Part shown: one piece after another, positions 1,837 to 22,242 of the stretch
Layout of the letters: each line of letters starts with the position of its first letter
Position numbering within the stretch: the first letter of the stretch is position 1
Source of the DNA: Promethearchaeota archaeon Loki_b32
GTDB taxonomy: Archaea > Asgardarchaeota > Lokiarchaeia > Sigyniarchaeales > SOKP01
NCBI GenBank assembly: GCA_005223125.1
Contig: NJBH01000014.1
Location: forward strand, 1-64,000
Direction: 5' to 3'
Length of the DNA: 64,000 nt
Translations under genes and position numbers: made by a program
Notes under the pieces: model-generated
Database searches by the model: none
What the model was told of the DNA's origin: nothing
What the model saw: only the letters and a program-made list of their open reading frames with translations

Positions 1837-2883
1837 ATGTCTCTTCAGGAATTAGGAATCTCTCATAAAAAAATCAGAAAACAACTTGTTGTATACATTA
1901 ATTTTCGAGGAGAAATAAAAGATATTCCTTCTAAAATTGATGAATTATACCAAAAATGTAAAAACTATGTTTCTGAACCCGCTATTGCTGTTATAGATTA
2001 TGGAGTTTATAGTGAAAGTGGGCAGGATATTGATGTATGTTTTCCAATATCAAAACCTTTAGAAAAAAAAGATTTTAAAAGCAAACATCTTGAGGAAGTA
2101 GAAGTTTTATCAATAGATCATTACGGTCCATATGCTAAATTAGGAAAAAGAGCTCAAGAATTATTCAATTATTTACACACTTATGGAGTATTAGGAACAA
2201 GTTGGATAAGACTGGTCTTTCATAAACTTAGCTTAAAAAATAAAATAAAAGATGAAATTGAAATTCAAGCAATTTTACATGGATGGGATAATAGGTTAGC
2301 AAAAAACATAAATCGTGTTCTTGGTGAAGATATAAGAAAAGAAGTTATGAAAGACAGGGAAAAGCTTTTTACAATCGAATCCACATTAGACGATAAATTT
2401 CAATGGATTAACATTGTTTTAACTAAATTGGATAAAATTGCAAATAATGACCAAAAATATGATATCCTATCTTGTTGTGCTCATGAATTCTCACAAAAGA
2501 GAATTGGAAAACTGAAATTAATTTATGAAAAAACTGGAGATATTGATGAAGTAATTAGAGAAATGGATAACGATTTTGCCTGGTATGAAGGGCAAAAAAA
2601 GGAAGGAAATACTATCTTTATACAGAAAGTACCTTATAATCAAGAAGGATATAATAAGGCTTCTAATTTAGGGGATAAGAAAAGAAACTACTGTCATTGT
2701 CCCTTAGTGAAACATTATTTAAATGAAAATATTTCTCCTACTTTTTGTAATTGTAGTGCCGGTTGGTACCGTCAATATTGGGAAGGAATTTTAGGAAAAC
2801 CTGTACGAATTAATATATTGAAGTCTCTTGTTAAAGGAGACGACGTTTGTCAGTTTAAAATTATTCTTCCTCAATTTGATTAA
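1837..2883 (+). CDS. GyrI-like ligand-binding domain fused to a Cys-rich DUF6144/V4R-like domain
   Basis: N-terminal DIDVCFPI / HYGPY GyrI-like motifs; C-terminal CCAH, YCHCP, FCNCSAGW, GDDVCQF. Confidence 0.6.
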   Translation: MSLQELGISHKKIRKQLVVYINFRGEIKDIPSKIDELYQKCKNYVSEPAIAVIDYGVYSESGQDIDVCFPISKPLEKKDFKSKHLEEVEVLSIDHYGPYAKLGKRAQELFNYLHTYGVLGTSWIRLVFHKLSLKNKIKDEIEIQAILHGWDNRLAKNINRVLGEDIRKEVMKDREKLFTIESTLDDKFQWINIVLTKLDKIANNDQKYDILSCCAHEFSQKRIGKLKLIYEKTGDIDEVIREMDNDFAWYEGQKKEGNTIFIQKVPYNQEGYNKASNLGDKKRNYCHCPLVKHYLNENISPTFCNCSAGWYRQYWEGILGKPVRINILKSLVKGDDVCQFKIILPQFD

Positions 2884-2958
2884 TCATGCACTAAAGTAAC
2901 TTACTCAATATAAAATAAAAGGAGATAGAAAAAATAAACAATAATCTTTGTTAAAACT

Positions 2959-3192
2959 CTAATATTTTCTGTCCTTTGAGACAATTTTCACATTCAGAGC
3001 TTCAGGACCTTTTCCATCTTTAGATTTTTTTAATTCAAATTCTACCTCATCACCCACATCAAGTTTTTTAAAACCATCTATATTTACATTTGAAAAATGG
3101 ACAAATATATCATCTTGATCTGCAACACTTATGAATCCATATCCTTTTTTAGCATCAAACCATTTAACGAAACCATACTTCTTTTCTAGTAT
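2959..3192 (-). CDS. cspA: Cold-shock domain protein (not in ORF track; no ATG/GTG/TTG start, ATA proposed)
   Basis: Manual translation: (I)LEKKYGFVKWFDAKKGYGFISVADQDDIFVHFSNVNIDGFKKLDVGDEVEFELKKSKDGKGPEALNVKIVSKDRKY*; RNP1 (KGYGFI) and RNP2 (IFVHFS) intact. Confidence 0.9.
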   Translation of the reverse strand: MLEKKYGFVKWFDAKKGYGFISVADQDDIFVHFSNVNIDGFKKLDVGDEVEFELKKSKDGKGPEALNVKIVSKDRKY

Positions 3193-10059: not shown

Positions 10060-10584
10060 TTGACGGATTACGATTATACATTTAAAATTATGATGCTAGG
10101 CGATGCATCTGTAGGAAAAACATCCCTTACTATGAGATATATCTCTGGATACTTCATGGAAGACCTCAAATTAACTATTGGGGTAGATTTTTATAGTAAA
10201 ACAACCTCCTTCAAGGATAAAAAAGTTAAATTACAAATTTGGGATTTCGGTGGAGAAGAAAGATTTCGTTTTCTACTTTCTCAGTATAGTAAAGGCGCAA
10301 ATGGAGCATTTTTCTTATATGATATTACTAATCAAACATCATTAGATCACTTACCTGATTGGACACAGGTAATAAGAGAACATGCAGGGGATATTCCTAT
10401 AATGTTGATTGGCTCAAAAGTGGATTTGAATGAATTCCGAGCAGTTCTTCGGGATGATGGAATTTTAGCCGCAAAAAAATACAGTCTATCTTCTTTTGTA
10501 GAACTTTCTTCTAAAACAGGAGAAAATGTAGAAAAGGCTTTCAATGTTATGACAGAAGTTCTTTTCGAAAAGTATTCAAGCTAA
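10060..10584 (+). CDS. Rab-like small GTPase (TTG start)
   Basis: GDASVGKT, TIGVDF, WDFGGEERFR, SKVD, ELSSKTGENV; no C-terminal prenylation Cys. Confidence 0.92.
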   Translation: MTDYDYTFKIMMLGDASVGKTSLTMRYISGYFMEDLKLTIGVDFYSKTTSFKDKKVKLQIWDFGGEERFRFLLSQYSKGANGAFFLYDITNQTSLDHLPDWTQVIREHAGDIPIMLIGSKVDLNEFRAVLRDDGILAAKKYSLSSFVELSSKTGENVEKAFNVMTEVLFEKYSS

Positions 10585-11166: not shown

Positions 11167-11700
11167 TTGACTGAAATAAACAATAAAGAACCCCCAAGAC
11201 CTAAAGGGTTACAAATACATAGTAAAGCACCCCAAATAGATACAACAGATATATATGATAATCCCATTAAATTAGATGAACTATTAGAGTCCTTTAATGG
11301 AGTTTTAATAGATTTTTTTCGAGGAAATTGGTGAAGTCACTGCAAAAAACATTTGAAACTTTTAACTGAAAATATTAATGAATTTGAAAAAAGAAATATT
11401 AAACTTATCTCCATTGCCAGCGATAGTGTCAGACTTCTAAGGAAATTCAAAGAAGAAAATGAGTTTGGTATCGATATGATTTCTGATAGAGGTGCTAAAA
11501 TAGCGAAAGAATATGATGTTTACTGGTTTGCTCCAGGTGGAGGTAAAGATTACAAAATAAAACAAGCTGTACCAAGTAAATTTCTCATCAATAAAGATCG
11601 GAAAATTATCTGGAAATATATAGGAAAAGATAAAACTGATAGACCTTCAATAGAAATGATGACTACCATTATTGATAATCAAATAATTACTCCCAAATAA
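11167..11700 (+). CDS. AhpC/TSA peroxiredoxin-like selenoprotein, UxxC (Sec at TGA 11332-11334), 177 aa
   Basis: AAGGAG at 11155-11160, then TTG; frame reads ...KAPQIDTTDIYDNPIKL...VLIDFFRGNW-TGA-SHCKKHLK... and is continuous with ORF 11353..11700; SECIS-like element follows the stop. Confidence 0.9.
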
Positions 11701-11764
11701 GAATGACGTGAGTGTAAAAAAATGAGACGCTCAAGGACAAACCTCGTGAGGGTTTTGGGATAAT
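11686..11764 (+). promoter_or_regulatory. SECIS-like 3' UTR element, copy 1
   Basis: ATGA 11703-06; stem TGAGTGT(11709-15)/ACGCTCA(11727-33); A-rich loop; GGAC 11735-38; extra hairpin AAACCT/GGGTTT; basal TCCCA/TGGGA. Confidence 0.85.
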
Positions 11765-11912
11765 CTTTCTTTTTATTTTTTTATTAAAAACTATATAACC
11801 AAATTTAAAATGGAAATTCCGCATTTTCGAAATACATATGTTTAAAACATCTAATTTTATTAATGAGTTTAAGAAATATTGCATTGGAATTGAAAACGAG
11901 GTAATATACACG

Positions 11913-12440
11913 ATGGGTTTAAATAAAGAAGAAACACAGAGACCTAGGGGATTAGGACTTCATATAAAGGCACCAATGATAAACACAATTGACATTTATG
12001 GCAATACAATTAATTTAGCTAATCTCCTTAAAGAATATAAAGGCGTAATCGTTGATTTCTTTCGAGGCACTTGGTGAACTTATTGAAAAGAACACCTTGA
12101 GCATGAAAAAAAGCATTTTCATGAGTTTGAACAACGAAAAATTAAGATTCTCTCTATAGCCAGTGATACGGTTGGACTATTAAAGAAATTTAAAGAAGAA
12201 AACAATTTTCCTGTAGATATGATTTCTGATCGTGGCGCTAAAATTGCAAAAGACTATAATGTCTATTGGTTCGCTGAAGGCTGGGGAAAACTAAAAGTAA
12301 AACAAGCGGTACCTAGTAAATTTCTCCTCAATAAAAATGGTGAAATCATCTGGAAGTATGTGGGACGAGATAAAACTGATCGACCTTCTGTGAGTGCGTT
12401 AATATTCCTTATTGATAAATACTTAATAAATCCCAAATAA
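11913..12440 (+). CDS. AhpC/TSA peroxiredoxin-like selenoprotein, UxxU (TGA 12075-77 and 12084-86), 175 aa
   Basis: GAGGT at 11898-11902, then ATG; MGLNKEETQRPRGL...IVDFFRGTW-TGA-TY-TGA-KEHLE... continues without other stops into ORF 12219..12440; full-length paralog of the upstream gene. Confidence 0.88.
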
Positions 12441-12502
12441 GAATGATTTGAGTGTGGAAAAATGAGACACTCAAGGACTACCTTGTGAGGGTAATGGGAT
12501 TT
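12428..12502 (+). promoter_or_regulatory. SECIS-like 3' UTR element, copy 2
   Basis: ATGA 12443-46; stem TTGAGTGT(12448-55)/ACACTCAA(12467-74); A-rich loop; GGAC 12475-78; hairpin TACCT/GGGTA; basal AAATCCCA/TGGGATTT; T-tract follows. Confidence 0.85.
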
Positions 12503-14045: not shown

Positions 14046-15344
14046 ATGTCGAAAATTAAATTTGACCATGATTTTTGGGATATGCTGAAGTATAAAAGAA
14101 GTAGTAATAATATTAGATGGTCTTCAGCAATCCTTAAAGAAGAAGTAATGAAAGAAGTGGATTCAATTAGAAATAACATAAATAGGAGAGACGATTTCTA
14201 AATGGATGATCACGTAACTGGCACAATGTATTTAGATTCTAACGAATTGGAACGACAACCAGCTCATACTTTTCTTACTAAATGGACGTTCAATAACAAA
14301 AGCTGTGGAACTGGGAAGACTAAGAAAGACAGTGACAATATTAAATATTTTGTCAAGAAAGGTATGAAAATTTTGGTATGTTTATCTAACCATAGACTCA
14401 TTGAGGAATTTATTGAACGGATGGAATATAAATGTGAATATATCCATTTAAAAGGCAAATTACAACCTCTAATGTGCAATAAAGAAAACCCTAATCCAGA
14501 TGCTTTTTTAAATGGGGGGTGCAATAATTGTAAGGAGATTTATGGTGTTTGGGATGAAGAAAAGAATGATTTCATGCTGTTAGGTTATAGTCCTCTTGAT
14601 TTTCTAAAAGATATTGAAACTTTTATATTCAACTGCGCGACAACAAAGCTGAGTTTAGCCGAAAACACATTCGGAAGGAATTTTGATGCCATTATAAAAG
14701 ACAAGGAAGTTATGGAAAATCCCATATATATTTTAGATGATGTAATGACAATGACTAAAACAGAAGTAGCAATTCCTTTATTGGTAGAAATTTCGGATTT
14801 ATATAACATCCCGAAAGATAATACTACAGTGATCTACTGTAAAAAGAATTTTGAAGTGGAAATAAGCCAGTTATTACCAGAAATTCACACTGGACATTAT
14901 GGAGACTGTAGGGGAAGCAATAGATTTGAAGAATGTAAGAATGTAGTATTATTTGGTAGATTTGCTCTTAGAGATTCGGTGAAATGGTTGCTCAGCTTAT
15001 ATGGACTAACACAAGAAGAGATTAAAAGCATGGAAGAAGCGGAAGAAATACAAGCATTACATCGAGTTAGACCTCTCTTAGATAAAGAAGTTAGGATCTT
15101 TTTATTTACGAATACTTTGATGAATAAAATACCTAATGCTACGGAAGTATTTAACAAGAGACATCTAGATAAATGTTTAGAAATTTTAAATAGAAAAGAA
15201 GAACTGGAAGGATTAAATAAAACGGATATATATAATAAAATAAAAGGAGATCATAATGATACTAAGCGTTCATTAGAGATCCTAGAACATTTCAATAAAA
15301 TTAAACCTATATTTGGTTACGGAGCTAAATTGACATTTGTTTAG
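14046..15344 (+). pseudogene. SF2 helicase-like replication protein of a mobile element, interrupted
   Basis: CGTGKT (motif I), LVCLSNHRLIEE (Ia), CATT (III), HYGDCRGSNRF (V), QALHRVR (VI); no clear motif II; in-frame 51-codon ORF 14046-14201 ends in TAA right before ATG 14202. Confidence 0.5.
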
Positions 15345-15700
15345 CTCTTTCAAAATCAAATATGTTTTTTTTCTTTATATATTATAGTAAATCAACAGAT
15401 TTGGTTTAAAAGGCTTCTAATACTTATAGAAAGCAAAAGAAGAATTTTCACATCAATTCACAGACCACCTCGGTTCCCCCATCTCTTAATAAGAATGCTT
15501 TTTGAGGGGAAAAACGATGAAGGGGGGTATGTTTAGATTACATTAATCTTACTTTGGTGTGCCCTAAAATAAGCGGATATAATAATATGATTCTTTCTAA
15601 ACCAAGTAATATAATATAGAAGGAGTTTAACAAAAACTAAATATTAGTTTAAACGGATTCTTTTTTATCAGTTATCTAGATAAGAATATAAAATTAACTT

Positions 15701-16201
15701 TTAATGAGTACTTTCCTCATATTTTTTTAGGTCAATAAAGAGAATAGAGCTGTTCTTCCGATCTCGAAACCATTCAAATCCCATGTTTACCTTTTCTAAG
15801 TAATAGGATTTCATATCTAAAGTAGTTTCCACTAGCAGTAAACGACAAGCAATGATGTTGCTTGCTTCTAATGATTTTTCTAAAGCGATTTTTATCAATG
15901 CTATACCAAGATTTTTATGTTTATAGTTATTATCTACACCTAAGCGTCCGAGAAGTACTATTGGTACTTTATCAATTCCAAATATCCTTGCATCTCCTGT
16001 ATTTAATTGAGAAGCGGAAAGTGTTAAAAATGCAATTACCTTATTAGAATCTTTCACACAAAAAGTGTATGTTTTTGAAAGCTTTCGCTTTTGATTGAGA
16101 AGAGCTAGAGTATTCAAAAAAGAGTTAATAACCTGATCTCCACAGTCGAATGGTTCAATAATTACATCTCCATCTAGTTCTTTAAAAATTAAATCGGTCA
16201 A
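15701..16201 (-). CDS. GNAT acetyltransferase toxin (TacT/AtaT-like)
   Basis: FDCGDQVINSFL, VIAFLTLSA, VPIVLLGRLGVD..YKHKNLG, YY...GF. Confidence 0.8.
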   Translation of the reverse strand: MTDLIFKELDGDVIIEPFDCGDQVINSFLNTLALLNQKRKLSKTYTFCVKDSNKVIAFLTLSASQLNTGDARIFGIDKVPIVLLGRLGVDNNYKHKNLGIALIKIALEKSLEASNIIACRLLLVETTLDMKSYYLEKVNMGFEWFRDRKNSSILFIDLKKYEESTH

Positions 16202-16215
16202 TTGAAAAATCCCTT

Positions 16216-16461
16216 TTATAATTTCTCAATTTCTTCTAAAGATATTACATATTCCTTCTCTTCCAATTTTTTATAGAATTGGTGAGAGGATTTAAAAAAA
16301 GAACGAGTTTTTTCATCAATTTCTCTATCTTCAAGTTTTTTTTCAAGATCCTTAATCTCTTGCTCGGTTAATATGATCTCTTCAGAATCATCAAAGAAGA
16401 AATTCTCTTCAGATATTTTTTCTTCCTTTCTAACTTCTTTTTCTTTTGGCGTTGTCATCAT
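16216..16461 (-). CDS. Putative antitoxin of the GNAT toxin
   Basis: Small acidic ORF directly upstream of the toxin; IILTEQE...L segment resembles the C-terminal half of DUF1778 antitoxins. Confidence 0.55.
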   Translation of the reverse strand: MMTTPKEKEVRKEEKISEENFFFDDSEEIILTEQEIKDLEKKLEDREIDEKTRSFFKSSHQFYKKLEEKEYVISLEEIEKL

Positions 16462-16517
16462 TATAAAAATGGAATTATTCCTATAAATGATTTGTTATTA
16501 TAACTAAATTGCATCTA

Positions 16518-17336
16518 TCATTCTAATATATTATTGTACGGATTCCACTTGTCATAAAGCTGAATGTAGTCGTGATAATTGAGCTTAACATGGCAATTGA
16601 AATTCACATCGCTGACTTTATGGCATAATAAGATTTTCCGATCCTCTTTTGCGCATCCCATTCTTTTCCGCAGGGTATTCAATGTTCTTCTGAAAGTATG
16701 ACATGAAATCCACTTTTCAATATTCAAACGGATAACACAATTCCTTATATAATGATTAATGGTACGGAGTGAATATCGTTTCTTCTGAATGGACAGAAAT
16801 AATGCGTTAGAATCCGTTTCTTTGACCGTCCTTTCCTTCAAATATATGGTTAAGTGCATTGCTAAACCTTCTGAAAAGTAATAAATCTTTCTTCCTGTCT
16901 TTCCTTCCGTTTCAACATATCGTTTCTTTATGTTTAAATTTCTATAATCAAGATTAATAAGCTCTCCGATTCTCATCCCAGTTTCTGCTAACAATCTAAA
17001 TAGAAGGTAATAGTTGTAATTATTATTATACATGTAATCCAAGATCTTTTTTACTTCTTCCTTAGTCATTACAACATCCTTATTAGAATCCGGTTTTTTA
17101 TGAATCGGCTTCCATTGGATACTATATCTGGGGATGATAATGACAAGATCATCGTAATATTCCATGATGAATTGTAAAAAACTGCGGAAGATCATCCACT
17201 TGTTTTGTTTGGTTTGTAGGGAGATGGTATCCAAGTGATTTAAGTAATCAAAATAATCAATAATATCCCGCTTTGTTAAGTTAAAGATGTGTCCGTTATA
17301 TCCAAAAAATTTAGAGCGGAAAAATATTGGAGACAA
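16518..17336 (-). pseudogene. Tyrosine recombinase/integrase, 5'-truncated, probably inactive
   Basis: ETGMRIGEL, GKTG, CHTFRR, LLCH; His (CAT, 16590-92) at the expected catalytic Tyr position. Confidence 0.75.
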
Positions 17337-21651: not shown

Positions 21652-22242
21652 ATGCTAAAAGCCGAGAAAACTGATACAAAACCCATATATATTTTTAAAG
21701 TTTGCATTCTTGGTCAAGAGCGTGTAGGGAAAACGTGCATTGCAAGGAGATTATGTTTTAATACATTTGATGTAAATACAAAAGAAACTTTAGGAATCGA
21801 ATTTTACACAAAGGATATTCCTATTATTGTGGATGGAGATGACTCATTCGTCCGAATCAGTATTTGGGATTTTGGTGGACGAGAGCAATTTAAAAAGCTT
21901 TTCCCATATTACATTAATGGCGCCAATGGAATTTTTATGGTATTTAACTTAGTTGATCTTCAAACTCTACTTAGATTAGACTGGTGGTATGAGAAATTAA
22001 ACGAATATAATCAGACGAATACGCCAAGAATGTGTGTTGGAGCTAAAAATGATCTTGTTAATACTGTAGATGAAAAATTTAAAGTAGATGAGTTAGTAAT
22101 TAAAAGGTTTATGGACAGACATGAAGAACATGATTTTTATAAAACATCCTCAAAGGAGAACTTTAACATTGATGTAATTTTTAAAGAACTCCTTTTAAAC
22201 ATATTAAAGAAAAATAAACTGGATTATGACCGATTACTATAG
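21652..22242 (+). CDS. Rab-like small GTPase
   Basis: GQERVGKT, TLGIEF, WDFGGREQF, AKND, TSSKENFNI. Confidence 0.88.
   Translation: MLKAEKTDTKPIYIFKVCILGQERVGKTCIARRLCFNTFDVNTKETLGIEFYTKDIPIIVDGDDSFVRISIWDFGGREQFKKLFPYYINGANGIFMVFNLVDLQTLLRLDWWYEKLNEYNQTNTPRMCVGAKNDLVNTVDEKFKVDELVIKRFMDRHEEHDFYKTSSKENFNIDVIFKELLLNILKKNKLDYDRLL

Follow-up and report, generated by a model that had tools for sequence, protein, structure and literature searches.

At the 3' ends of two adjacent selenoprotein-like genes of a lokiarchaeon, the RNA appears to extend beyond a canonical SECIS: a second hairpin follows the core, and a basal helix reaches back into the last codons of each gene. This raises the question of whether the locus holds a special, extended SECIS whose overlap with the stop codon matters for its function, as the initial annotation proposed, or whether these additions belong to Asgard SECIS in general. 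The window analysed here is a stretch of 64,000 nt (positions 1 to 64,000 of contig NJBH01000014.1, Promethearchaeota archaeon Loki_b32), and the two genes and their elements all lie on its forward (+) strand.

Both genes encode Prx-like (PrxL) proteins. Gene 1 (11167..11700, 177 aa, TTG start) is of the UxxC type and its ORF spans a single TGA, the putative Sec codon at 11332..11334, which provides the first residue of the redox box; gene 2 (11913..12440, 175 aa) is of the UxxU type and spans two TGA codons within its redox box (12075..12086). Both match AhpC-TSA in a profile search (E=2e-22 for gene 1, E=3e-21 for gene 2) and share 60% identity, and both ORFs are uninterrupted only with TGA read-through, in which case the box is U-S-H-C in gene 1 and U-T-Y-U in gene 2, the latter being of the same type as PrxL.1 of Mariotti 2016 (PMC4989117). 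Of 161 genomes of the class, 90 contain PrxL relatives, and almost all of these carry one or two TGA codons in frame. Of the Sec machinery, the source genome contains genes for SelB and SepSecS and two selD genes with Sec; Rfam, ARAGORN and pattern searches of the 95%-complete assembly found no tRNA-Sec. Contigs of four runs (type unrecorded, one study) represented related strains only. Next to the PrxL pair (14202-17336), inspection by eye pointed to an integrase-like gene, a GNAT acetyltransferase and its small partner, and a fragment resembling a helicase, possibly an integrated element with a toxin-antitoxin pair. Rab-like small GTPases, ordinary Asgard eukaryotic signature proteins, are encoded at 10060-10584 (Ras family, E=4e-46) and 21652-22242.

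Every piece listed by the initial annotation (AUGA, stem, loop, GA, second hairpin and basal helix) was located as described in both copies, and translation confirmed that both proteins end in Pro-Lys-TAA and that gene 2 reads U-T-Y-U. In SECIS 1, the 5' strand of the basal helix P1 (11686..11695) consists of the last codons of gene 1 and pairs with 11756-11764. Past the TAA (11698-11700) lies the bulged strand of the predicted kink-turn (11701..11706), comprising G(-2), an R-A-U loop and G-A, with AUGA at 11703-11706 and G(-2) paired with C11738. The 9-bp upper stem P2 and its A-rich 11-nt loop ending in AG (11707..11735; strands 11707-11715 and 11727-11735, loop 11716-11726) lead into the kink-turn GA (11736-11737) and the closing C(+1) (together 11736..11738). 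The side hairpin P3, a third arm with the loop Y-G-Y-R-A that is conserved across gene families, occupies 11739..11755, and the 3' strand of P1 (11756..11764) is followed by a U-rich tract. SECIS 2 repeats this order: the last codons of gene 2 form the P1 5' strand (12428..12435, paired with 12495-12502 in the MFE structure), the TAA is at 12438-12440, and the core (12441..12478) contains G(-2), AUGA (12443-12446), the 9-bp P2 (strands 12447-12455 and 12467-12475) with its 11-nt loop, GA (12476-12477) and C(+1), followed by P3 (12479..12493), the P1 3' strand (12495..12502) and a U-rich tract. AUGA begins 2 nt past the TAA in both genes. P2 pairs at 8/9 and 9/9 positions in the two copies, and both loops are 11 nt long and end in AG, with A at five and three of their first five positions.

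The core is known. In the text of Mariotti 2016 (PMC4989117), a lokiSECIS consists of AUGA, a stem of 9 bp, an A-rich 11-nt loop ending in G, usually after A, and then GA, with GA or AA allowed directly 3' of the stem; the same text also describes a PrxL with two Sec in its redox box, an element partly overlapping the CDS and a core AUGA doubling as the stop. This lokiSECIS is the Asgard type I eSECIS-like structure of Huang, Xiao and Zhang 2024, which their text models as core, upper stem and loop, mentioning a lower stem and internal loop without highly conserved nucleotides (PMC11227280). A 2026 review keeps the same Asgard models and lists 11 archaeal selenoprotein families (PMC13188914). 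Both window elements show every feature of the lokiSECIS (AUGA, 9-bp stem, 11-nt loop, AG end, GA and a position at the end of a selenoprotein gene), hence the description of a eukaryote-like lokiarchaeal SECIS with an AUGA/GA core was sound, and judged by their sequence both are genuine Asgard SECIS, predicted to direct the reading of UGA as Sec. The core, the two-Sec PrxL and the SECIS-CDS overlap are already published and not new; the suggestions that one SECIS serves the two UGAs of a UxxU box and that it overlaps the CDS agree with what the text of Mariotti 2016 reports (PMC4989117).

Whether the additional arms are real was not a matter that the two copies could settle. They share 81% identity across the element, 78% across the U-tract and 73% across the adjoining paralogous CDS, falling to 50% further out, and single-sequence folding gave z-scores of -0.7 and -1.7, so that the two-copy comparison by itself is weak evidence for conservation of the element. 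The covariation initially read from the two copies stood in part. Pairing of the upper stem is kept between them, the difference being a one-sided G-U/A-U change, and in the basal helix the outer A-U pairs do differ while the helix core is identical in both. The 73% identity of the adjoining CDS would fit an artefact of recent tandem duplication as the source of the extra conservation; the chance of this is negligible, as the same architecture stands, in different sequences, behind unrelated genes in many genomes, and orthologs and other families had already refuted it. Since the two-copy comparison is weak alone, it is the orthologs that settle the reality of the element.

About 110 PrxL 3' ends were collected and 116 elements aligned; all element counts given here are raw, without correction for relatedness. 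Across the 116 aligned elements, 83% of cells of the three-helix structure pair, against 70% in shuffled sequences and at most 48% in slid registers, and among 72 model-aligned elements, mostly non-PrxL, 86% were paired against 60% shuffled, in an alignment fitted to the structure. P2 has double changes at all 9 of its pairs across the 116 elements. Among PrxL elements the inner part of P3, two C-G pairs, is nearly invariant and double changes are confined to the outer pairs; between gene families the P3 stem sequence is wholly replaced and its pairing retained. An alternative GNRA-tetraloop register for P3 was rejected, as it did not outperform shuffles and 103/116 elements break the outer pair that it requires, and the pentaloop register was kept. 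The recommended RNAalifold check on orthologous ends, run on a sequence-only alignment, recovered P2, with P3 and P1 absent from the prediction. A search for P3-P2 tetraloop-receptor or loop-loop covariation gave no convincing signal.

Comparison of gene families separates the arms. Counting any hairpin beginning no more than 6 nt from GA, P3 is present in 78/95 PrxL, 39/43 VhuD, 32/32 UU-family (described below), 9/9 SelD and 4/4 VhuU elements, compared with 18–29% of shuffles, and its loop holds G-Y in nearly every element. In a scan of the source genome, a side hairpin was found 3' of every credible element (PrxL, HdrA, VhuD, VhuU and both type II SelD). Forty further SelD 3' ends were held out; the core finder called 32 of them, four wrongly by eye, and P3 was present in 28/28 correctly called elements, from six families. 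The hairpin also occurs in a Helarchaeota genome and in a GC-rich family with GUGA cores, presumably Thorarchaeia judging from those cores. P1 was detected in 83/95 PrxL elements against 27% of shuffles, and in the UU family in only 8/32 against 18% of shuffles, no more than chance. P3 is thus the more constant arm, since UU-family elements keep it without P1. The three-way junction claimed for the two copies is therefore real and conserved, with the pairing of 116 elements and the presence of P3 in PrxL, VhuD, VhuU, HdrA and SelD elements behind it; what did not survive is its status as a special variant. By these sequence comparisons the junction is the normal form of the Asgard SECIS, common to nearly all and not peculiar to this locus. 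A covariance model of the element matches 34/34 genomes of the source family and almost none in families without SelD; SECIS 2 scores 92 bits, as a training sequence of the same model. One of the source genome's own loci (L199, G000 C16) carries two Sec-containing selD genes in tandem; a separate type II SECIS with three arms belongs to each, and the closing pairs of the two differ (U-A, C-G).

Such a closing pair joins the nucleotide two before AUGA to the nucleotide after GA. It forms in 184/184 cores with five pair types (G-C 176, C-G 4, U-G 2, U-A 1, A-U 1), and in the 28 held-out SelD elements it is C-G in 22, U-A in 4 and C.A in 2, hence canonical in 26/28. These are unfiltered counts; alignment A1 was picked for a C after GA, so that the invariance of C there is no evidence. 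At the sequence level, the core reads R-A-U then GA, opposite GA, that is, tandem G.A/A.G pairs 3' of a 3-nt loop, and in k-turn nomenclature we take the closing pair to be the canonical pair that shuts this loop. The k-junction of TPP riboswitches is a kink-turn with a third helix in its non-bulged strand, coaxial with the canonical helix (PMC4005666, Wang et al. 2014). The predicted topology of the Asgard element, likewise a kink-turn whose non-bulged strand carries a third helix, matches it; the two differ in that the Asgard element has a longer 5' linker and no known ligand. Stacking of P3 can only be inferred, since this linker exceeds that of the riboswitch in length and type I elements have linkers of a different length from those of type II (SelD).

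We consider it likely that each element is the SECIS of its own gene and folds into a k-junction, with P3 as the canonical arm and P1 as a stabilising helix. Each 3'-UTR SECIS would direct UGA-to-Sec recoding some 360 nt upstream in its Prx-like gene. Comparison shows that P2 with its tandem G.A pairs is the non-canonical helix, that the closing pair leaves the 3-nt R-A-U loop, and that P3 is inserted in the non-bulged strand, in a junction usually closed by P1. P3 would then stack on the single closing pair and provide the canonical arm that eukaryotic SECIS obtain from helix I, and this stacking would pre-organise the kink. The apical adenosines and the P3 loop would face a protein or the ribosome, where the A-rich apical loop and the G-Y of P3 may offer contacts to L7Ae or L30e, EFSec or another Asgard factor.

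A reading compatible with this one makes P3 an independent recognition module, a docking hairpin for EFSec or for an Asgard SECIS-binding protein, and not part of the kink. We think this rather unlikely. It would account for the loop G-Y being kept while stem sequence and loop length (4–11 nt) vary, and for the distance of P3 from the core in SelD elements (3–6 nt); no SBP2 is reported in Asgard in the literature, and the source genome holds only two L7Ae-family genes, both short. In type I elements, however, P3 begins 0–2 nt past the closing pair, as stacking predicts, and no SelB-wing_3 domain was found over the cut-off in the genome, which makes a bacterial-type loop reader unlikely; a SelB winged-helix reader of that type was rejected on this ground.

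The overlap with the stop codon is common and not obligatory. Of 83 PrxL elements with P1, 51 have its 5' strand within the CDS or stop, 4 have it across the boundary and 28 have it entirely in the UTR; the strand is within the CDS or stop in 25/37 VhuD and 4/4 VhuU elements. AUGA mostly begins -1 to 29 nt from the stop in PrxL, and across families the core UGA is often the stop codon itself. In elements with a coding P1, proline is encoded by CCC in 40/46 cases compared with 12% genome-wide, and PrxL orthologs with an earlier stop keep the same C-run in the UTR and have a shorter protein. Because of this CCC bias and the retained C-run, the Pro-Lys ending is a by-product of RNA constraint. 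SelD of family f12 (L292-L307) appears on sequence grounds to be another case of RNA shaping a protein C-terminus, its conserved ending E-T-E-F-P encoding the P1 5' strand and the core UGA apparently being the stop.

Terminating ribosomes probably melt both window copies briefly, and the initial annotation took this melting as part of how the element works. In its strong form, the basal-helix overlap would couple termination to SECIS unfolding and so regulate Sec insertion, which would suit the frequency of the overlap, the RNA-constrained codon choice and the physical likelihood of transient melting here. We regard such coupling as improbable, for P1 is wholly in the UTR in about a third of the orthologous PrxL elements (28/83), it is largely absent (at chance level) in the UU family, and its register to the stop is not conserved. 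The overlap is, as far as these alignments indicate, optional in Asgard SECIS; it would reflect compact genes whose last codons the RNA constrains, and the SECIS would refold after each terminating ribosome without acting as a switch.

The U-rich tract, which follows 83/95 PrxL elements, also invites the reading that P3, P1 and the tract form a transcription terminator or 3'-end stability hairpin beside the SECIS. This is very improbable and the terminator reading of P3 was rejected: such a hairpin occurs at 1/1467 ordinary U-tract gene ends against 102/142 SECIS, and P3 persists where no tract follows (23/43 VhuD and 26/32 UU-family elements). Terminator prediction called no terminator-like site on the SECIS strand.

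As the initial annotation had anticipated, a covariance-model scan matched vhuD, hdrA, vhuU and some selD UTRs and returned new selenoprotein candidates, raising the SECIS count of the source genome to approximately 15. At least five candidate families are absent from the 11 archaeal families of the 2026 review (PMC13188914). The best-supported candidate for a new di-Sec family is the UU family, a ubiquitin-fold (SAMP/Urm1-like) protein in whose gene adjacent TGA-TGA codons (C-U-U or D-U-U) are followed by a conserved extension of ~36 aa and then by a SECIS whose P3 is a variant form (L109:2032-2535 and 2731-3186, minus strand; L110:3033-3978; G000 C24 and C32). The family matches 136/161 class genomes and, among the matches listed, nearly all have two or three in-frame TGA codons; database entries are mostly truncated at ~122 aa, and TGA-free homologs carry a similar extension. 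The likeness of its structural model (pLDDT 86) to SAMP1/Urm1 is weak (best E 3e-3). The C32 pair is found behind a permease of the SBF/ACR3 type.

A second candidate selenoprotein, with matches in 57/61 family genomes, is encoded by a gene of ~305 aa without a Pfam match (L316:1597-2532, minus strand, G000 C21). One TGA is conserved in its N-terminal part (T-U-N), and its type II SECIS carries P3 and is closed by a U-A pair. Small genes for a single membrane helix, in which a Gly-rich linker precedes the TGA and a SECIS lies 3' of each (L107:1872-2177, L108:1929-2168; further TGA genes of this kind at L132, L161-L164, L170, L176, L177, L187-L189 and L193), recall eukaryotic SELENOK/SELENOS in layout alone. 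Zinc-ribbon genes of ~38 aa (L129, L130, L131, L140, L160, L168, L169, L180) all end in F-K-TGA-TAR with a SECIS ~40–55 nt downstream, and possibly encode a C-terminal Sec. At L146:1191-1481, a three-armed SECIS accompanies a gene of the CC/Se-motif (HesB-like) kind that reads S-U-C (NF041239 E=7e-8, below the cut-off). The initial annotation had held that occurrence of the element after non-Sec genes would speak against it. Hits outside the known families mostly follow conserved in-frame-TGA genes, and two SECIS-like elements have no clear Sec gene, L167 and L317 (G000 C22:33562-33649, minus strand); the C22 element, which is degenerate, has an intron-containing tRNA gene nearby.

The third arm may bear on how an archaeal 3'-UTR SECIS is linked to the ribosome without SBP2. 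The published Asgard models end at GA, so that a conserved arm of ~20 nt is absent from constructs and searches that rely on them, whereas the full boundaries define the RNA for probing, structure work and pull-downs, and the extended model serves as a sharp selenoprotein gene finder. These boundaries also alter the view of what the eukaryotic SECIS evolved from.

Compared with known systems, the elements share with the lokiSECIS the AUGA/stem/loop/GA core, nearness to the stop, partial CDS overlap and a PrxL with one or two Sec, and differ in the side hairpin, the single closing pair and the junction, none of which is in the text of PMC4989117 or PMC11227280. The literature texts, as distinct from figures and SECIS supplements, in which a side hairpin may be drawn, held no description of a SECIS with a three-way junction or k-junction, and the full three-armed Asgard SECIS appears to be unpublished. 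Methanococcal SECIS are likewise archaeal 3'-UTR Sec signals, with a different kink-turn-like core motif, GAA/A (PMC11881835); a further likeness is that VhuD elements carry AUGA and GAC/AAC (PMC4989117). In M. maripaludis, a Loki vhuU.2 element showed no activity (21 vs 22 background), in a report that does not give the construct boundaries (Peiter et al. 2025, PMC11881835). The reported energy of this SLoki construct, -6.9 kcal/mol, is nearer to that of the core-only AT-rich VhuU element (-7.8) than of the full one (-19.5), a likeness that is only suggestive of a core-only construct.

The SBP2-bound kink-turn of eukaryotic SECIS (type I/II) resembles the Asgard element in its AUGA/GA tandem G.A core, apical adenosines and 3'-UTR position. 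An Rfam scan of the window elements gave neither a SECIS hit, with E values up to 10 admitted, nor any other real match. The Asgard upper stem is shorter, and the Asgard element has a third helix in its 3' strand, whereas eukaryotic elements have a simple internal loop above helix I. The eukaryotic layout, for which PMC4989117 is one source, is two helices separated by such a loop. As a tentative proposal, which we hold to have an appreciable but minor chance of being right, the ancestral Asgard SECIS may have been a k-junction whose third arm was needed for recoding and did the job (kink stabilisation or EFSec recruitment) that SBP2 later took over in eukaryotes. The one published functional test of a Loki SECIS may then have failed partly because the arm was omitted, and the eukaryotic SECIS would be a simplified descendant that has lost it.
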